Below, piece after piece: positions 1-33,207 of a DNA stretch of 64,000 nt (the first letter of the stretch is position 1; every line of letters starts with the position of its first letter). This stretch comes from Candidatus Binataceae bacterium (GTDB lineage Bacteria > Desulfobacterota > Binatia > Binatales > Binataceae): assembly GCA_035531855.1 (NCBI GenBank), contig DATKSB010000080.1, positions 14,243 to 78,242 on the forward strand, given 5' to 3'. A model generated the notes under the pieces. It was given only the letters and a program-made list of their open reading frames with translations. It did no database searches and was not told the DNA's origin. The position numbers and the translations under genes are program-made.

Positions 1-1148
1 AGAAATTCGCCGAGCTCGACGCAGTCGCGCGCGAGTTCAACCAGATGGCCGAGCGGCTCGAACGCTTCGAAAAGCTCAACGTCGATCGCCTGGTGTACGA
101 GAAAAGCAAGACCGAGGCGATCATCGAAAGCCTTGAAGACGGTGTGGTGCTGATCGACTCCGAAGGGATGGTCGCGCACATCAACGAAATTGCGGCGCTG
201 ATCATGGGGGTCGAACCCAAGGACGCGCTCGGCAGCCCGTTCGAGGATCTGAGCAGCAATCATCCGCACTACCTCCGCGTGCGCGACGCGCTGCGAAATC
301 TGCGCAAAGCCGACCCGGCCAGCCAGCGAATTGAGGTGCAGCTCCACGTGCGCGGCCGCGACCACACTTACGTTCTCAAACCGATGCCGCTACATCACGA
401 TGAAGGCGCGCCCCTTGGCACGCTGCTGATCCTGCAGGACGTGACTTATCTGCGCGATCAGGATCGCGCGCGCGCAAACCTGATCGCCACGCTGTCGCAT
501 GAATTGCGCACCCCGCTGACCTCGCTCGCGCTCTCGGCCGAGCTGTTGCGCCGCGACGGTGCGGCCCTCGATTCCAAGCAGCGCGATCTGCTCGAAGCGA
601 TTCTCGAAGAATGCGCGCGCATGAAGGCGCTCAGCGATAACCTGCTCAACCTCGCGCGCGGCGAGCTGGCGTCAATCTCGGTGCAGCGCGAGCGGCTCGA
701 TCTGCGGCAGATCATCGAAGAAGTCGTCCACCGTTTCGCGCTTCAAGCCGAAGAAAAGCACGTGCACCTGACCGAGCATCTCGAATCCGTTCCCGAGATA
801 TCGGGCGACGCGGTTAAGCTGTCGTGGGTGGTTTCAAATCTGATTGGCAATGCGCTGCGCTATACGCCCGAGGGCGGCGAGATCGAAGTTGCGGCTTGCT
901 CGATCGATACCAAGGTGCGGCTCGAGGTCTCGGATTCCGGCCCCGGAATTCCGCCGGAGATTCGCGAACACATTTTCGAGCGGTTCGCGCAGTACGGCCG
1001 CGGCGGAATCGAAAAAGGTTCGGCGGGCCTGGGCCTCGCGATTGCAAAAGATATCGTCGCCGCCCACGGTGGACGGATTTTCGTCGATAGCAACGCGAGC
1101 GCGGGCAGCCGCTTCGTGGTCGAGCTGCCGGCCGGAGGAACTCTGTGA
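1..1148 (+). CDS. Sensor histidine kinase, 5'-partial: open upstream of the window; PAS-like region followed by HisKA and HATPase_c
   Basis: The frame is open from base 3 (KFAELDAVAREFNQ precedes the first Met). H-box LSHELRTPLTSL and the C-terminal ATPase motifs (LRYTPEGGEI, DSGPGIP, GSAGLGLAI) are present. The stop overlaps the start of the downstream response regulator (ATGA). Confidence 0.85.
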   Translation, partial: KFAELDAVAREFNQMAERLERFEKLNVDRLVYEKSKTEAIIESLEDGVVLIDSEGMVAHINEIAALIMGVEPKDALGSPFEDLSSNHPHYLRVRDALRNLRKADPASQRIEVQLHVRGRDHTYVLKPMPLHHDEGAPLGTLLILQDVTYLRDQDRARANLIATLSHELRTPLTSLALSAELLRRDGAALDSKQRDLLEAILEECARMKALSDNLLNLARGELASISVQRERLDLRQIIEEVVHRFALQAEEKHVHLTEHLESVPEISGDAVKLSWVVSNLIGNALRYTPEGGEIEVAACSIDTKVRLEVSDSGPGIPPEIREHIFERFAQYGRGGIEKGSAGLGLAIAKDIVAAHGGRIFVDSNASAGSRFVVELPAGGTL

Positions 1149-2494
1149 TGTCTTCCCTGCTGATCGTTGACGACGAAAAAAATATCCGCCGCAGCCTCGC
1201 CTCATTCTTCGAGTCGATCGGCCATTCGGTCGCGTCCGCCGAAAACGGCCGCGAGGCTGCCGCGATGCTCGCGGGCCGCGCCTTTGACCTGGTATTGACT
1301 GATTTTCGGATGGCCGAGATGAATGGCCTCGAGTTGATCGGCGAAGTGCGCCGCCGCCAGCCCGATTGCCTGATCATCCTGATGACCGCGTACGCGACGG
1401 TCGAGAATGCGGTCACCGCGATGAAGGCCGGCGCGTACGACTACGTGACCAAGCCGTTCTCGCTCGAACAGATTCAGCACATCGTCGAGCGCGCGCTCGA
1501 GCTGCGCGGCCTGCAGGCGGAAAATCGCGCGCTGCGCGACACCATCGACGAAGCGCCGCTGCTCGAATCGCACAGCGCCACGATGACGCATCAGCTCGAA
1601 CTCGCGCGCCAGGCCGCCGCCAGCGACGCGACTATCCTGCTGACCGGCGAAAGCGGAACCGGCAAGAACGTGCTCGCCCGCCAGATGCATCGATGGAGCC
1701 GGCGCCGGGAAGGCCCCTTCGTCGTGGTCAACTGCACAACTTTGTCCGACGAGCTGCTCGAAAGCGAACTATTCGGACACATGCGCGGGTCATTCACCGG
1801 AGCGGTGAAGGACAAGCCGGGACGGCTCGAAGCGGCGGACAACGGATCGGTCTTTCTCGACGAGATCGCTGACTTGACGCCCACGTTGCAGACCAAGTTT
1901 CTGCGCTTCGTGCAGGAGCAGAGTTTCGAGCGTGTTGGCGGCGACAAAACGATTCGCGTCAACGCGCGGATCATCGCCGCCTCCAATCGCGATCTTGAAG
2001 CCGAGGTCGCGGGGCGCCGTTTCCGCGAGGATCTTTTCTACCGTCTCAACGTCATCACGATTCGGGTTCCTCCGCTGCGTGAGCGGCGCGAGGACGTGCC
2101 GGCATTGGCGCTGTGGATGCTCAAGGCCGCCGCGATCCGGCATCAGCGGCCCGCGATGCGGCTGACGCCGGAAGCGTCCGCGGCGATCTCGAAGTATCGA
2201 TGGCCCGGCAATGTGCGCGAGTTGCGCAACGCGCTCGAGCGCGCCGCGGTGCTCTCGCGCAGTGACGAGATTACGCGCGAGGATTTACCGGATTCGCTTT
2301 TTCGCGAGGCCGTCGATATTCCTTCCGGCGCAGTGCATTCAGCGGGATCGTATTCGCCGAGCCTCGAAGACCTCGAGCGCGAGCACATTCGCCGCGTGCT
2401 CGCCGAGAGCGCAACTCTGGACGAAGCCGCCGCCGCGCTCGGGATCAACGTCACCACGCTGTGGCGCAAGCGCAAACGTTACGGAATCGAATGA
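1145..2494 (+). CDS. Sigma-54-dependent response regulator (NtrC family): REC, AAA+ sigma-54 activator and Fis-type HTH domains
   Basis: N-terminal REC (LLIVDDE, D...K). Walker A GESGTGK, GSFTGA (GAFTGA-like) motif and ESELFGH. C-terminal HTH (LDEAAAALGINVTTLWRKRKR). Translationally coupled to the upstream kinase. Confidence 0.9.
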   Translation: MMSSLLIVDDEKNIRRSLASFFESIGHSVASAENGREAAAMLAGRAFDLVLTDFRMAEMNGLELIGEVRRRQPDCLIILMTAYATVENAVTAMKAGAYDYVTKPFSLEQIQHIVERALELRGLQAENRALRDTIDEAPLLESHSATMTHQLELARQAAASDATILLTGESGTGKNVLARQMHRWSRRREGPFVVVNCTTLSDELLESELFGHMRGSFTGAVKDKPGRLEAADNGSVFLDEIADLTPTLQTKFLRFVQEQSFERVGGDKTIRVNARIIAASNRDLEAEVAGRRFREDLFYRLNVITIRVPPLRERREDVPALALWMLKAAAIRHQRPAMRLTPEASAAISKYRWPGNVRELRNALERAAVLSRSDEITREDLPDSLFREAVDIPSGAVHSAGSYSPSLEDLEREHIRRVLAESATLDEAAAALGINVTTLWRKRKRYGIE

Positions 2495-27276: not shown

Positions 27277-28230
27277 ATGACACCGCAAGTAAAGATAGGT
27301 GCTGGTTTTGGATTGTGGCGTTTAGGAATGCCGTCGGCCGAGACGATCGCTCGAGTGGCGGAGCGCGCCGAAGACTGGGGCCTGGATTCCTTCTGGCTTT
27401 CGGACCATCTGCTCGCGCCGTCGCCGGAACTCGACGTCGTCGCCACGCTTTCGCTCATCGCCTCGCGCACCTCGCGGATGAAACTCGGGCCGAGCGTGCT
27501 GCTCTTGAACCTGCGGCATCCGCTGATGGCAGCGAAGTCGTTCGCGTCGCTGGATTATCTGTCCGGCGGCAGGATGGTGATGGCGGTCGGCACCGGATCG
27601 AATCTGGCCGACTACGCGGCCTGCGGAATTTCGCCGGACGCGCGCGGCAAACGGCTGGACGAAGGAATCGAAGTTCTGCGCACGGTCTGGAAAGATCGGC
27701 AGGCGAGTTATCATGGCCGGTTCTTCAATTTCGACAACGTGACGATCGAGCCACGGCCCGCGCCGCGCGCGAACAACGATTTCGGCACGATGGACATCTG
27801 GATCGGCGGACGCGCGGAGTCGGCGCTGCGGCGCACGGCGCGGCTCGGCGACGGATTCTTCGCGTCGTTCCAGACCCCCGAGGAATACGAATCGAGCATG
27901 GCGAAAATTCGCGCTTACGCCGTCGAGTACGGCCGCGCGAATGCGCGAATCGAGTCGGGGCTGATCCTGCTCTGCCGAATCGCGAGCTCACGCGAAAAGG
28001 CGCTCAAGGAAATGCAGCCGATGCTCTCCGCGATGGGCCGCGGGTCCGAAGCATTTCTCGAGCGCAGCGTGTACGGCTCCGCCGAAGATATCGCCGCGCA
28101 GATGGAACGGTACATCGCAAAGGGACTCGACAAGTTCGTCCTGTGGCCGATCGCAGCCCCCGATTCATGGGAGCAGCAAATCGAGCTGGTCGGTCGCGAG
28201 ATTGCCGCCCATTATGCGCGCGCCGCATGA
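27277..28230 (+). CDS. LLM-class flavin-dependent oxidoreductase (luciferase-like monooxygenase fold)
   Basis: 317 aa; the LSDHLL and TIM-barrel LLM signature regions. Confidence 0.75.
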   Translation: MTPQVKIGAGFGLWRLGMPSAETIARVAERAEDWGLDSFWLSDHLLAPSPELDVVATLSLIASRTSRMKLGPSVLLLNLRHPLMAAKSFASLDYLSGGRMVMAVGTGSNLADYAACGISPDARGKRLDEGIEVLRTVWKDRQASYHGRFFNFDNVTIEPRPAPRANNDFGTMDIWIGGRAESALRRTARLGDGFFASFQTPEEYESSMAKIRAYAVEYGRANARIESGLILLCRIASSREKALKEMQPMLSAMGRGSEAFLERSVYGSAEDIAAQMERYIAKGLDKFVLWPIAAPDSWEQQIELVGREIAAHYARAA

Positions 28231-28813
28231 GCATAAGAGCATAGCGCGCCTGCTCGGCGCGCTGATCGTCGCGACGGCGCTGTGCGCCGCGGCGGGATGC
28301 AGCCGCCCCGCGCCGCCGCCTGCCGCGCATTCGATCTATGCCAGCGCGGAATCGGTCGAGGAAAACTTTCGCGGAAGAGAATTCATTCTCGGCGAGAGCA
28401 ACACGGTCGCGATGGTTCGCACCCTCGGCTCGGGCAACAACGCCTGGATGAAACTGCCGTTCTGGTTCGGCGTCAACATTCTGGTCCCCGGCGTCACGCA
28501 GCCGAAGGAAGGCGACTACTACGTGATCAGCGAGGCGACGTTGGGCAAGCCGCTCAGCGCACCAGGCGAATGGATGATCGACGCGGGCAGCACGCTCGTG
28601 AAACAGGAGACCGTATTCATCACGACCCGCACGCACTACGACAGCGGCGGAAAAATTCTTCCAACCATCGTGCAATACATGGGCAAGCGCGAATTTACCC
28701 GCGGTGACGGCAAAAAGGTCGAGATCCCGGTCGTGCGCGAGGTCTCGTTGCCAATGAAATGGACGCTCGAAGGCCAAGTGCCGGCAAGCTACGCGCGTTT
28801 TCGAATCGGATGA
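28214..28813 (+). CDS. Lipoprotein of unknown function (paralog 1)
   Basis: Signal peptide with lipobox LCAAAGC. Shares about 35 % identity with the downstream paralog (PFWFGVN, VREVSLPM). Confidence 0.55.
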   Translation: MRAPHEHKSIARLLGALIVATALCAAAGCSRPAPPPAAHSIYASAESVEENFRGREFILGESNTVAMVRTLGSGNNAWMKLPFWFGVNILVPGVTQPKEGDYYVISEATLGKPLSAPGEWMIDAGSTLVKQETVFITTRTHYDSGGKILPTIVQYMGKREFTRGDGKKVEIPVVREVSLPMKWTLEGQVPASYARFRIG

Positions 28814-29436
28814 ACCGCGCGCGAATCAAAGCGTGGACCGTCGCCGCGATCACCGTGCTGATGATCGCGGGCGGCGCGGGATGTAGTCCGGACAAGGCGC
28901 TGGATTTCGGTCCGACCGGCGAGATTAATACTCCGCCGCAGGATCAGCTAAGCCGCGACATCCTGCGCGATTTCGACGGCAAGGATTTCACCCTCGGCGA
29001 CAACGATCGCCAAGCCCACGTTCATCTGAGCGGATGGGCGGAAAATCGCGGGGTCGTGATGCCGTTCTGGCTGGGCGTCAATCCGCTGTATCCGGGGTTT
29101 CTGCGGCCCACGGTCGGACATATTTATGTGATGAGCGAATCGACGATGGTGCGGCCTCTCGGCCACAACGAGTACCTGATTCGCGCGGGCTCGAAACTGT
29201 TCAAGTTCGACACGCTGCTCGAAGCCACGCACACCCGCTACCTCGACACGGGCAGGATGCTCCCGATAGTGGTGCGCTTCGTCGGCACGCGAGTGATCAC
29301 GGTGCCAAAAGACGCGCCCGCAGCCGGAACGATTACTGAGAAGGTCCCGGTCCTGCGCGAAGTCTCGCTACCAATGCACGTCGATGCACCCGAACCGGGC
29401 TACGTAAAGTTCGAGGTTATGAAGAACCCCGCCTGA
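28810..29436 (+). CDS. Lipoprotein of unknown function (paralog 2)
   Basis: Start ATGA-overlaps the paralog 1 stop. Lipobox MIAGGAGC. Motifs PFWLGVNPL, IVVRFVG and VLREVSLPM are shared with paralog 1. Confidence 0.55.
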   Translation: MNRARIKAWTVAAITVLMIAGGAGCSPDKALDFGPTGEINTPPQDQLSRDILRDFDGKDFTLGDNDRQAHVHLSGWAENRGVVMPFWLGVNPLYPGFLRPTVGHIYVMSESTMVRPLGHNEYLIRAGSKLFKFDTLLEATHTRYLDTGRMLPIVVRFVGTRVITVPKDAPAAGTITEKVPVLREVSLPMHVDAPEPGYVKFEVMKNPA

Positions 29437-29462
29437 ACGTAGGCCGCAGCGGCGATCCCCTT

Positions 29463-29519
29463 CCGTCATCCTGAGCGGAGGCCGCAGCGGCCGGAGTCGA
29501 AGGATCCCGGACGCTCATG
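29463..29519. repeat. Left arm of a ~57-bp inverted repeat flanking the GIY-YIG gene
   Basis: CCGTCATCCTGAGCGGAGGCCGCAGCGGCCGGAGTCGAAGGATCCCGG. The reverse complement matches 29929-29985 with about 5 mismatches. Each arm carries an internal GGCCGCAGCGGCC palindrome. Confidence 0.7.
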
Positions 29520-29582
29520 CAGACTCTCACGATTGCCCGCTCTGGCCTGGAAACGACTAGAGTCGCCGTTCTCATTCGCCGC

Positions 29583-29855
29583 TCAGGTCACTCCAGGTGG
29601 ATTGTTCCGCTCGATCAGCGCAGTCTTCTTCGCGCGCGTCCACCCCTTGAGTTGCTTTTCTCTCGCGATTCCATCCGCAGCCCGATCAAATTGCTCGAAA
29701 TAGACCAGGCGCGTGACGTGGTAACGCGCGGTAAAACCGGCGATCGCTTTCTCCCCATGCTCCGCGATCCACCGATCGAGGTCATTTGTCACACCGACGT
29801 AGATGACGCGCGAGGGGCTCGCGACGATGTAAACCGAAAACGTGCGCTCGCGCAT
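29583..29855 (-). CDS. GIY-YIG nuclease family protein (UPF0213 / YhbQ-like)
   Basis: Start MRERTFSVYIVAS. VIYVGVTNDLDRWIAEH and Y..FEQFDRAADGIAREKQLKGW motifs. Confidence 0.75.
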   Translation of the reverse strand: MRERTFSVYIVASPSRVIYVGVTNDLDRWIAEHGEKAIAGFTARYHVTRLVYFEQFDRAADGIAREKQLKGWTRAKKTALIERNNPPGVT

Positions 29856-29928
29856 AAGCGCGATCGTCGCTGGCATCGCGGGCGAGGACAAGCGCCCGGA
29901 GGTCGGAAGAGGAATCGTGACGGCGTGC

Positions 29929-29985
29929 ATGGACGCCCGGGATCCTTCGACGCCGGCCGCAGCGGCCTCCGCTCAGGATGACGCA
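29929..29985. repeat. Right arm of the inverted repeat flanking the GIY-YIG gene
   Basis: CATGGACGCCCGGGATCCTTCGACGCCGGCCGCAGCGGCCTCCGCTCAGGATGACG, the reverse complement of the left arm. Confidence 0.7.
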
Positions 29986-30098
29986 AGATCGAGCCGGTTC
30001 CGATAAAATCACAAACTCTGAGCAGCGTGTCAGCCGACTTCTCGCTCGATAGCGGTCAATCCCGAAAGATCGTATACACGCCGGCAAAGGAGGAACCT

Positions 30099-30842
30099 AT
30101 GCAGATCTTCTGCACGTATCCCTTGAGCGTAAGCGATCGGTCTAAAGGAAAAGTTGAAGCTATTCGCCGGTGGGGAACGCCTCGTGTGAAAGGAATTGAC
30201 GGTCGTGCCAGATCGGCCAAACGCGGAATGTTTTTCGTCTCCGGTTCGTTCGGCTTAATACCTCATGATCAGCCGGTCAACTCAGATCTCAAGACGTTCA
30301 CCGAAACCGATATAGAAGGCATTCTGCCACGAGTGCGAAATAGCCTGATAAAATACCAAATCGACGGTATCACGTTTTACCTAAACCCGACCGAGAAGCA
30401 GGGTCTAGCTTACCTGCGCCTGCTCGTAATCGCCTGCTATTTACAGCGTAAGACCCTGACGGCCAGGTCCTTCAAAGACGAGGAATTTCCTGACTGGATG
30501 GAATCAATGCGCGAAGCCAAGCTGACTCGAGAGCGCGCCCGGGGATTACGGGACAAACCGGACAGAATCAAAGAGTCGTTTGATCTTCTCTTGAAGAAAT
30601 ATGGCCGCGACCCAATGATTCTATTCGAACAGGCGAACACATATGCAGACCTAGACAACTTCGAGGCCGCGGCGAAAGACTACGAGGAAGCGGCAAGGCT
30701 GCTCCCGCTTCCTGAGTTCGAAAATCTGGCCCATCAGAAAGCGCGAGCGGAAAAGAGAAGATCAGGGGCTCTTCTGCCCGCGACCTCGGACCCTCCAAGT
30801 TGGAGCAAGGAATCTCGTGGCCCGAATCGGATCCGGGCATAA
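30099..30842 (+). CDS. Hypothetical protein (247 aa) in a low-GC island; C-terminal TPR-like region
   Basis: Strong SD AAGGAGGAACCT-ATG. Local GC is about 50 % against 65-68 % in flanking genes. No family recognised. Confidence 0.45.
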   Translation: MQIFCTYPLSVSDRSKGKVEAIRRWGTPRVKGIDGRARSAKRGMFFVSGSFGLIPHDQPVNSDLKTFTETDIEGILPRVRNSLIKYQIDGITFYLNPTEKQGLAYLRLLVIACYLQRKTLTARSFKDEEFPDWMESMREAKLTRERARGLRDKPDRIKESFDLLLKKYGRDPMILFEQANTYADLDNFEAAAKDYEEAARLLPLPEFENLAHQKARAEKRRSGALLPATSDPPSWSKESRGPNRIRA

Positions 30843-31168
30843 AGACGCTTTACGCACAGGCCCGGAAACTCGTGCCTCATTGCCCATCAGCTTCCGTGTC
30901 TGTGTCTCGGACGGCACTCGTCCGCCTGGTTGTCATTCGCGAGGCCCCAACTACCCGCGAGACGGATAGGAACAATAAATTAGGCGAACGGATTCAGGCT
31001 TTAGGGGTATCTCCGCACGTGAAAACTCTTATGGGGGAGTTATCGACGCTGCGGAACAAGATCGAATATGACCCTTGTAGACGCGCTAATCTCGCGACTC
31101 CGACGGACGCAAAATTATGCGTCGACAAGTTGATGGAGGTTCTAGCGGCTCTCTATCCTCGTCGTTGA
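30800..31168 (+). CDS. DUF4145-like protein (tentative), overlapping the upstream ORF in the -1 frame
   Basis: TTG start. IKTLYAQARKL...LGERIQALGVSPHVKTLMGELSTLRNKIEYD...LMEVLAALY resembles the DUF4145 helical domain, which is usually C-terminal in restriction/Abi-type proteins. The assignment is from memory only. Confidence 0.35.
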   Translation: MEQGISWPESDPGIKTLYAQARKLVPHCPSASVSVSRTALVRLVVIREAPTTRETDRNNKLGERIQALGVSPHVKTLMGELSTLRNKIEYDPCRRANLATPTDAKLCVDKLMEVLAALYPRR

Positions 31169-31200
31169 CCCTTTTAGCCATTTCAGTTCCCGCAACAAGC

Positions 31201-33207
31201 TCATGTGTTCGCCTCTTCGGCGTCCTGCAGCGTCGCGGTGGGAAGAATTTCGGCGGGAAGATCGTCGAGGAAGCGGGAGGCGCGGCCCATCATGTAGCCG
31301 TTCATGCGATCGAACATGTAGATCGGATAGGTCAGGTAAAGCTCGTCGCGGGCGCGCGTGCTCGCTACGTACATCAGGCGGCGCTCTTCTTCGATTGACT
31401 CTTCGTCCACGCTCATCGGACCGGGGAAGCGGCCGTCCGCCGCCCAAATTACGAAGACAATGCGCCATTCGAGGCCCTTGGCTGAATGGATCGTGCTGAG
31501 CGTCAGGAACTCGTCCTCGGGACCCTCGGCCAGAACGCCGCCAAGGGAATCGCTCGGAGGCTCGAGCGCCATGTCGGAGAGCATCGTCTCGAGGCTGCGG
31601 TAGCGCTCGGTGATGTTCTGAAAATGTTCGAGGTCGCGCTCGCGCTTGGGGAAATCGTCGGGGTACGCCTCGCGCATCAGCGGCAGGTAGTATGCCAGCG
31701 TCGCGGCGATCTGCTCGGCAGGACGTTTCGATTCGCCGCGGATCTCTGTGAGCAGCGCCGCAAGTTGCGCGTAACCCGACGCCGCTCCGCCGCGTCCTCC
31801 CGATTGCCCCAGCCGCGCGAGTTCGCGCTCGGGCGCATCTGAGGTAACGAGCGCCTCGACTGTGCGCTCGGCGGTGCGATGCCCGACTCCGCGCACGAGC
31901 ATCAGCGCGCGCAGCCATGAGACCGCATCGGCGGGATTTGCGACCACCCGCAGATGCGCGAGCACGTCTTTGATATGCGCGGTCTCGATGAACTTGAATC
32001 CGCCGCGCTTGATAAACGGGATATCGCGGCGCTGGAGTTCGAGTTCGAGATCAAAGGAGTGAAAGCTCGAGCGGAACAGCACCGCCATCTCGCCCAGCTC
32101 GACGCCCTCTTCGCGCAGCTCCAGGATGCGTTGCGCGACGAAACGCGACTGCATGTGCTCGTCCTGCGCGCGGACCAGGATCGGCCGGAAATCGCCGCGG
32201 CGCGAGGTGAACAGGACCTTGGTGTACTTCTCGGCCGCGCGCGAAATCACCTCATTGGCAACGTCGAGGATTCCCTGCACCGAACGGTAATTCTCTTCGA
32301 GCTTGATCACGCGAGCGCCGGTGAACAACTCGGGAAAGTCCATAATGTTGTGGAAGTTCGCGCCGCGAAACGAATAGATCGACTGCGCGTCGTCGCCCAC
32401 CGCCATCACGTTGCGATGCTCCGAAGCGAGAAGCTGCACCAACTCGGCCTGGATGCGGTTGGTGTCCTGATATTCGTCGATCATAATGTAGCGATAGCTT
32501 TGCGAAAGGCGCTGGCGCACCTGCGGATACTGCCGCAGCAATTCGGCGAGCCGGTAGAGCAGATCGTCGTAGTCGAGCAGCGCGCGTTCGCGCTTGTAGG
32601 CCTCGTACTTTTCGGCGAGCGCGACGATCTCGCCCTGATGCTCGATCAGGTGCGCGAAATCCATCTCGATCTCTTCGGCCAGGTCGCGCATCTTGTTGCG
32701 CGCCATGCTGATCACTTCGGCGACCGTGCTCTTTTTCGGAAAGCGCCGCTCGCGCGACGCAAGTCCCATCCGCGCGCGCAACAGATTGATCACGTCCTCC
32801 ATATCGCCGCGATCGAGAATCGTGAAATTCGGTTTGAGCCCCATCTGGGCGCCGTGGCGGCGCAGAATATTGTTCGCGAACGAATGAAAGGTACCGCCCG
32901 CGACCGCGCGTGAAGCCTCACCGACCAGCCGCTCGACCCGCTCGAGCATCTCCTGCGCCGCGCGCCGGGTAAACGTCATCAGCAGGATCGCGCCGGGCGG
33001 GACTCCGCTCTCGATAAGTCGCGCGACGCGGTAGATAAGCGTGCGAGTCTTTCCCGAGCCTGCGCCCGCGATCACCAGCAGCGGGCCGTCGCGATGCGTC
33101 ACCGCGGCAAGCTGTGCCACGTTCAGCAACTCGGCATACTTGATCTTGTAGACGCGCTCGCCCGGCTCCCGATTGGGGTCGCGCAGGAAAATAACCTTAT
33201 CCGCCAC
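31201..33207 (-). CDS. ATP-dependent DNA helicase, UvrD/PcrA/Rep family
   Basis: 668 aa. Walker A AGAGSGKT, motifs Ia/II (DEYQDTN), GDDAQSIY, and the C-terminal 2A domain. Confidence 0.85.
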   Translation of the reverse strand: MADKVIFLRDPNREPGERVYKIKYAELLNVAQLAAVTHRDGPLLVIAGAGSGKTRTLIYRVARLIESGVPPGAILLMTFTRRAAQEMLERVERLVGEASRAVAGGTFHSFANNILRRHGAQMGLKPNFTILDRGDMEDVINLLRARMGLASRERRFPKKSTVAEVISMARNKMRDLAEEIEMDFAHLIEHQGEIVALAEKYEAYKRERALLDYDDLLYRLAELLRQYPQVRQRLSQSYRYIMIDEYQDTNRIQAELVQLLASEHRNVMAVGDDAQSIYSFRGANFHNIMDFPELFTGARVIKLEENYRSVQGILDVANEVISRAAEKYTKVLFTSRRGDFRPILVRAQDEHMQSRFVAQRILELREEGVELGEMAVLFRSSFHSFDLELELQRRDIPFIKRGGFKFIETAHIKDVLAHLRVVANPADAVSWLRALMLVRGVGHRTAERTVEALVTSDAPERELARLGQSGGRGGAASGYAQLAALLTEIRGESKRPAEQIAATLAYYLPLMREAYPDDFPKRERDLEHFQNITERYRSLETMLSDMALEPPSDSLGGVLAEGPEDEFLTLSTIHSAKGLEWRIVFVIWAADGRFPGPMSVDEESIEEERRLMYVASTRARDELYLTYPIYMFDRMNGYMMGRASRFLDDLPAEILPTATLQDAEEANT

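Follow-up and report, generated by a model that had tools for sequence, protein, structure and literature searches.

Ssn proteins are single-domain GIY-YIG nucleases of about 94 aa (CDD cd10448; Chenal et al. 2025, Nat Commun, PMC11893778). SsnA binds a hairpin repeat, called NTS in Neisseria (CGTCATTCCCGCGMAVGCGGGAATCYRG) and SRM more generally, as single-stranded DNA only and cuts just upstream of it; binding of RNA or double-stranded DNA was not observed for Neisseria Ssn (PMC11893778). An SRM lies near 71% of ssn homologs and on both sides of the gene in 42%, and in N. meningitidis SsnA lowers the integration of NTS-flanked transforming DNA (PMC11893778). The authors likened the NTS-ssnA-NTS layout to insertion sequences (IS200) and to REP/RAYT systems (PMC11893778). 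The architecture of a nuclease gene between repeats is already published and not new, and since it was published in 2025, the finding described below opens no new category.

We analyzed a 64,000-nt stretch of a Candidatus Binataceae bacterium (GCA_035531855.1, contig DATKSB010000080.1), hereafter the window, in which a small GIY-YIG gene is enclosed by an inverted repeat. We consider the locus to be an Ssn-family unit flanked by two inverted copies of its cognate SRM, with a probability of about 85%. The features of the unit are listed in Table 1.

Table 1. Features of the ssn unit, with positions counted from the first nucleotide of the window.
Feature	Position	Strand	Remarks
Outer SRM copy, truncated (CCTGAACGTAGGCCGCAGCGGC), then C-rich leader (GATCCCCTTC)	29432..29463	+	Overlaps upstream lipoprotein gene stop codon
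3' arm, downstream of ssn gene	29460..29534	+	SRM-like hairpin core 29464-29510, inner extension 29511-29534 (ACGCTCATGCAGACTCTCACGATT)
3' arm apical stem-loop, GGCCG-CAG-CGGCC	29480..29492	+	
ssn gene, 90 aa, single GIY-YIG domain	29583..29855	-	Pfam PF01541, homolog alignment
5' arm, upstream of ssn gene	29913..29987	-	SRM-like hairpin core 29937-29983, inner extension 29913-29936
5' arm apical stem-loop, GGCCG-CTG-CGGCC (on - strand)	29955..29967	-	
Outer module of 5' side, CTCAGAGTTTGTGATTTTATCGG... (on - strand)	29988..30031	-	Common to units in L081, L029, L052, L174

The enclosed ORF (29583..29930, minus strand) matched Pfam GIY-YIG (PF01541, E=1.8e-11) and no other Pfam family. The ORF-finder start (MHAV..., 29930) lies inside the 5' arm, so that the frame reads through the right arm of the repeat, as had been noted from the sequence alone. 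Alignment with homologs, which are 92-100 aa long, placed the start at M26 of the ORF (MRERTF, 29855). The resulting protein is the single 90-aa GIY-YIG product, encoded on the minus strand between the arms, that the sequence-only reading had proposed. With one GIY-YIG domain, which spans nearly all of its sequence, and fewer than 150 aa, it has the size of an Ssn protein. A tblastn search of PLSDB with this protein found two N. gonorrhoeae chromosomes (E=9e-15, 87% coverage). The match (L021, NZ_CP119140.1) is a 94-aa ORF at 1492..1776 amid 16 NTS copies in 3.2 kb, and because of this setting we identify it as ssnA. In PLSDB, two complete 2.17-Mb gonococcal chromosomes are labelled as plasmids, and the ssnA ORF is unannotated in its gene table. 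In pairwise BLASTP, the window protein and the gonococcal SsnA ortholog were 50% identical over 80 aa (E=4e-24), which is within the BLAST limits for Ssn proteins (E<1e-10, >75% of length) when this N. gonorrhoeae ortholog, rather than CAX49033.1 itself, serves as the reference. The gene had first been placed in UPF0213, the family of YhbQ and YazA (cd10456). However, the sole relative in the PDB was the UPF0213 protein 1zg2 (BH0048) at E=0.008, as against E=4e-24 for SsnA, and the protein therefore belongs with Ssn and not with UPF0213. Neither the NCBIfam models nor the PADLOC models gave a match for the nuclease.

A repeat search resolved the flanks into two arms of 75 nt each, 87% complementary and spaced by 378 nt; the near-perfect inverted repeat of about 57 bp claimed earlier is thus real, and longer. 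The longest exact inverted match between the arms is 22 nt; 200 dinucleotide shuffles gave 11.6 on average and 18 at most. The sequence GTCATCCTGAGCG occurs exactly twice in the window, once per arm, and the palindrome GGCCGCAGCGGCC, predicted to lie inside each arm, is present there as one exact copy each. With up to one mismatch, GGCCGCAGCGGCC has 6 matches against 0.6 expected. There is a single motif cluster in the window, at the ssn unit. A further 12-nt inverted pair (29209/30020) was taken as chance.

Read on the strand that begins with CGTCAT, either arm has the form CGTCAT-CCTGAGCG-GA-GGCCGCnGCGGCC-GGn-GTCGAAGG-ATCCCGG; the core of the 3' arm on the plus strand is CGTCAT-CCTGAGCG-GA-GGCCGCAGCGGCC-GGA-GTCGAAGG-ATCCCGG. 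In order, an arm comprises the 5' tag (C/T)GTCAT, which is conserved and oriented, then an imperfect hairpin, a 3' tag ATCCCGG and an extension of 24 nt, which is lineage-specific. Within the hairpin, ATCCT/AGGAT forms the basal stem, G-A mismatches occur in tandem, and the apical stem-loop varies in sequence. The CGTCAT tags open both arms, and the arms point outward; each arm thus carries the conserved, oriented upstream tag. Alignment of nine 5' ends and eight 3' ends from related units showed that the arms are of two distinct types, each conserved across units, with conservation reaching into the untranslated regions on the inner side and into extra modules on the outer side. The outer module formed by the truncated SRM and the C-rich leader precedes the 3' arm in every related unit compared. 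Its truncated motif copy (29432-29453) overlaps the stop codon of the upstream gene. It was initially taken as an independent third copy, and this was revised because CCTGAAC is native to the end of the lipoprotein gene, as seen at the empty site of L145.

The arms share the layout of the NTS, that is, CGTCAT...hairpin...ATCC(C)GG. We applied the published degenerate SRM pattern, HGTCWYN(0-2)YYVSBRHN(0-5)WNVSBRGN(0-2)RNCYNB, together with its criterion of one or more SRMs within 500 bp on each side of the gene, and found no match in the whole 64-kb window or in the related loci L001-L003. The pattern accommodates the prefix CGTCAT and the suffix ATCCCG but neither the letters of the stem nor the length of the loop, so that the arms are not counted as SRMs under the authors' operational definition. 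A scan of one genome per species with CCTGAGCGN{6,30}GTCGAAGGATCC returned at least 120 loci. The matches listed came from Acidobacteriota, Verrucomicrobiota, Fibrobacter (Fibrobacterota), Clostridia, Coriobacteriia, Gemmatimonadota, Patescibacteria, Proteobacteria and Binataceae. Among them, NGTCAT precedes 113 of 132 motif instances, a tag that is absent from the scan pattern. An ssn-like gene was present within the 8 kb fetched at only 2 of the 120 loci listed, and most copies of the motif are therefore solitary, as with NTS.

Covariation was assessed on the apical stem, the basal stem being fixed by the scan pattern. In the class with an 18-nt insert, the apical helix, which the pattern leaves free, comprises five pairs that are 91% paired, and all five change on both sides. 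The score was reached in none of 500 shuffles, and the slid controls collapsed. Folding of each arm, a check suggested by the sequence-only reading, did not add to this: as RNA (86 nt) or as DNA (49 nt), the predicted energies were no better than those of shuffled sequences (z -0.4 to +1.1), and the Neisseria NTS folded as a control gave z=-3.9. The structural case consequently rests on covariation and not on stability.

The arms had also been proposed as a conserved cis-regulatory structure for the nuclease gene, acting as leader and trailer RNA structures or through a long-range stem between the arms that controls expression or stability. The 5' arm does fall within what is presumably the leader, at 58 nt from the start codon; at L008, 5 nt separate the end of the motif from the ATG; and the arms could pair over 75 nt if co-transcribed. 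We nevertheless regard this explanation as very improbable. A scan of 29300-30150 for promoters and terminators found no such sites inside the arms, a scan of 28500-31000 against Rfam (E<=10) found no family match for them, and their fold energies are unremarkable, as described above. Moreover, most copies of the motif stand far from any ssn gene in the loci listed, gene-less units keep both arms, and Neisseria SsnA does not bind RNA, nor Neisseria Ssn double-stranded DNA (PMC11893778). A mir-1911 match in the Rfam search (29475-29529, minus strand, over the 3' arm) scored 23 bits against a gathering score of 88, and we attribute it to chance, the arm being a GC-rich hairpin. When the motif strings themselves were looked up in the literature, only primer sequences without relation to them turned up.

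The window copy of ssn differs from its relatives at conserved positions. Both the window protein and P0001 have Trp as residue 29, where 119 of 122 relatives, gonococcal SsnA among them, have Arg; in the window protein, residue 62 is Gly, and Ala in 118 of 122. Y9, Y19, H33, E66 and N85 are kept, and the catalytic set is incomplete because of Trp29. Position 29 lies at +10 from the second Tyr and at -4 from the invariant His; this spacing matches that of the catalytic Arg27 of I-TevI, and we take position 29 to be the likely catalytic Arg position. In addition, a 1-nt deletion shifts the frame and replaces the family C-terminus NPxWxDLxxE by NPPGVT. The changes are not assembly errors, because P0001 also has Trp29 and the altered C-terminus, and the 90-aa protein recurs unchanged on L142, an independent metagenome contig. 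Given R29W at the catalytic-Arg position and the frameshift at the C-terminus, the window copy is probably impaired and heading for decay, and it may be inactive.

The repeat is not unique to this locus. A search of related genomes, as had been advised, found the same arms at homologous loci, along with solitary and gene-less copies. At three loci from Binataceae assemblies (L001, L002, L003), they enclose proteins 81-87% identical to that of the window, and the gene neighbourhoods differ. P0097 (L008-L017), a Binataceae homolog that is more distant, is flanked on both sides by a variant with a shorter hairpin, and its neighbourhood is identical in all 10 places listed. P0004, too, is found downstream of a gene of the isocitrate/isopropylmalate dehydrogenase family (Iso_dh), with differing intervening genes. 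More distant homologs in other lineages have GTCAY-hairpin repeats of their own.

Two further features of the homologous loci were observed. At L003, L007 and L018 the contigs stop 140-250 nt from the ssn gene, which fits flanking repeats breaking short-read assemblies. At L004-L007, the Ssn homolog P0064 directly follows AAA_15/AAA_21 ATPase and DUF4276 genes and precedes a type I restriction specificity subunit; downstream of P0064 there is a tandem array of CCGTCACGCTGAGCGCAGCGA... motifs with a period of ~37 nt, broken by assembly gaps.

Two Binataceae MAGs contain at least three units each, some of them gene-less. L052 has two gene-less units (170-410 and 2280-2540) that share the same coding-sequence deletion junction and are ~85% identical; they lie in inverted orientation on either side of an FtsX-like permease ORF (999..2135). 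This repeat-gene-repeat layout recalls the NTS-gene-NTS clusters described in Neisseria. L081 contains a unit with two internal deletions, and L029 and L095 contain gene-less arm pairs. The gene-less units of L052, L029 and L095 measure 240-340 nt and have terminal inverted repeats.

The backbone around the window unit (27277-33207) is common to about 50 metagenome loci (L142-L191) and comprises, in order, a luciferase-like monooxygenase/oxidoreductase gene, lipoprotein genes 1 and 2 and a convergent UvrD-like helicase gene. The two tandem lipoprotein genes are paralogous (35-40% identical). The site between lipoprotein 2 and the helicase is empty in L145 and L146, with 9 nt between the stop codons, and many more distant relatives have short gaps there without the motif. 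It contains repeats only in L144, L174 and L147, a truncated ssn unit in L189, and the full unit together with a low-GC block in the window and L142 alone among the about 50 loci. L143 has an NAD-binding epimerase-like gene at this site instead, and the junction is a hotspot for differing insertions. The series from empty through repeat-only and truncated to full at one orthologous site suggests that the unit is mobile, and the comparisons show the arm-gene-arm unit to be a discrete, unstable module with distinct 5' and 3' ends.

The low-GC block adjoins the unit at 30000-31200, where GC is 0.50-0.57 against about 0.62 around it, so the lower-GC island noted earlier is real. It contains a TPR-containing ORF (30027..30842) and an overlapping 122-aa ORF (30800..31168), neither of which has a Pfam match above the gathering threshold or a PADLOC match. 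Besides the window, only L142, its near-identical twin, has the block; about 48 related loci lack it.

The junctions at this site were compared in detail. At the lipoprotein stop, the left junction falls within a native CCTGAAC that is similar to CCTGAGC of the unit, and L144 resembles L189 minus the unit, joined at CCGCAGCGG. Both junctions would point to short-homology (microhomology) events. Comparison with the empty site revealed no target-site duplication; the CTTC/CAAG flanks belong to the inverted repeat.

These observations bear on the possibility, raised by the Ssn authors themselves (PMC11893778), that the unit is an autonomous transposable element, that is, a new type of insertion sequence with the arms as terminal inverted repeats, the GIY-YIG protein as the nuclease that mobilises it and the gene-less copies as non-autonomous, MITE-like derivatives. 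The 75-nt terminal inverted repeats, whose distinct 5' and 3' end types are kept from locus to locus and from genome to genome, the three or more units per MAG, the deletion junction shared by gene-less copies, the presence/absence polymorphism at an orthologous site for which an empty state exists, the 81-87% identical proteins in differing neighbourhoods and the several contigs ending beside ssn genes would all fit such an element. However, the target-site duplication is lacking, and the left junction looks like microhomology and not like a staggered cut. The gene-less copies of L052 are only about 85% identical and hence are not recent products of transposition, and the constant neighbourhood of P0097 and the position of P0004 beside the Iso_dh gene suggest long residence. 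Most motif copies are solitary hairpins and not paired ends, and we know of no strand-transfer chemistry among GIY-YIG nucleases. Taken together, an autonomous transposon is possible but doubtful.

GIY-YIG enzymes hydrolyse DNA without a covalent intermediate. Given this and the absence of a target-site duplication, the protein alone cannot explain insertion. We instead favor the reading of the locus as an Ssn unit whose arms would be the recognition hairpins of the encoded nuclease, by analogy with the Neisseria and Wolbachia enzymes. We infer recognition and cleavage by a protein of the window type from the experiments on those enzymes. The nuclease would bind the folded arm only as single-stranded DNA, which may become accessible at replication forks or when DNA enters by transformation or conjugation. 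If it cuts as its counterparts do, nicks would fall a few bases 5' of CGTCAT, just outside each arm and on opposite strands, and the unit could persist and spread as a module through host recombination. The proposal of a nuclease sitting between its own substrate hairpins in a REP/RAYT-like, mobile or domesticated arrangement is supported, and such recognition was shown experimentally for the Ssn family (PMC11893778).

Tentatively, Ssn units may even be self-propagating elements of a new mechanistic type, in which the hydrolytic GIY-YIG enzyme nicks single strands beside the hairpins and the host then copies the unit into new sites, by repair or by switching templates at short CCTGAGCG-like homologies; we hold this to be a minority possibility. 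If true, gene-less miniatures would be copied likewise, the solitary hairpins across phyla would be footprints of the process, and the lipoprotein/helicase series together with the gene-less Binataceae copies would be the first comparative evidence for self-propagation.

The unit could also have been domesticated by the host to restrict or shape single-stranded DNA that enters the cell (transformation, conjugation, ssDNA phages), a role proposed for Neisseria, with the arms as leftovers of the gene's arrival. The lowered integration of NTS-flanked transforming DNA by N. meningitidis SsnA (PMC11893778), the location of P0064 between AAA/DUF4276 genes and the gene of a type I restriction specificity subunit, and the dispersal of motif copies in genomes of many phyla are consistent with such a role. 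Against it, the protein matches no PADLOC model, the window copy looks impaired, the unit is missing at the lipoprotein/helicase site in most close relatives, and the window contains one motif cluster only. Domestication is compatible with the account of the locus as an Ssn unit given above; as an explanation of this locus, we consider it unlikely.

The assignment of the locus as an Ssn unit extends the Ssn/SRM association to the uncultured Binataceae lineage and to a class of hairpins that is missed by the published pattern and is common in Acidobacteriota, Verrucomicrobiota, Fibrobacterota, Clostridia, Gemmatimonadota and others. Because the published pattern misses this widespread class, the published counts of SRM-bearing genomes are probably underestimates. 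Each new pair of nuclease and motif is a potential reagent for site-defined cleavage of single-stranded DNA, and the series of empty, repeat-only, truncated and full states at one site, together with the gene-less copies, provides a comparative handle on whether and how Ssn units move.

The locus resembles several known systems to different degrees. UPF0213/YhbQ/SLX1-like proteins (PDB 1zg2) share the similar size and the single GIY-YIG domain, but the sequence similarity is weak (E=0.008 for 1zg2) and an association with repeats is not described for that family. GIY-YIG homing endonucleases such as I-TevI and the Seg proteins have the same catalytic fold with the same Tyr/Tyr/Arg/His/Glu/Asn spacing, and their genes likewise appear and disappear at a site in the manner of selfish elements. 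They differ in adding a DNA-binding domain, in cutting double-stranded DNA at the allele that lacks the gene and in having no flanking hairpin repeats.

MITEs, for example the Correia elements of Neisseria, are matched by the gene-less units of L052, L029 and L095 in their small size and terminal inverted repeats. Like insertion sequences and MITEs, the Binataceae units have terminal inverted repeats and occur in multiple copies, including non-autonomous ones; unlike them, they showed no target-site duplication, no cognate DDE transposase is present, and their ends would be Ssn recognition hairpins. REP/RAYT systems (REPtrons) and IS200/IS605 elements also place a small nuclease gene between inverted hairpin repeats that are scattered in the genome, and recognition of folded single-stranded DNA, known for both, is inferred for the window unit. 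RAYT and TnpA belong to the HUH/Y1 enzymes, which attach covalently to DNA through a 5'-phosphotyrosine and are able to join it again, whereas the window protein is a GIY-YIG hydrolase with no known joining activity and no relationship to them in sequence or fold. The window unit thus has the inverted, dispersed palindromic repeats that flank a REPtron gene but not its HUH/Y1 protein.

The closest counterpart is the Ssn nuclease with its NTS/SRM repeats. Both consist of a single-domain GIY-YIG protein of ~90 aa, the gonococcal SsnA ortholog being 50% identical to the window protein, with oriented hairpin repeats on both sides that start with CGTCAT, end with ATCC..G and are also dispersed without the gene. 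The hairpin differs in size and build: it spans 31 nt between the tags, compared with about 16 nt in the NTS, and has a CCTGAGCG/CGAAGG basal stem with G-A mismatches below a variable apical stem-loop. Compared with the published Ssn systems, the arms of the window run 24 nt further, are split into 5' and 3' types and are missed by the published SRM pattern, the host belongs to Binataceae, and the gene copy carries R29W and a frameshift. New here are the gene-less and decayed Binataceae copies, the series of states at an orthologous site, and the altered catalytic-Arg position and C-terminus of the window copy.
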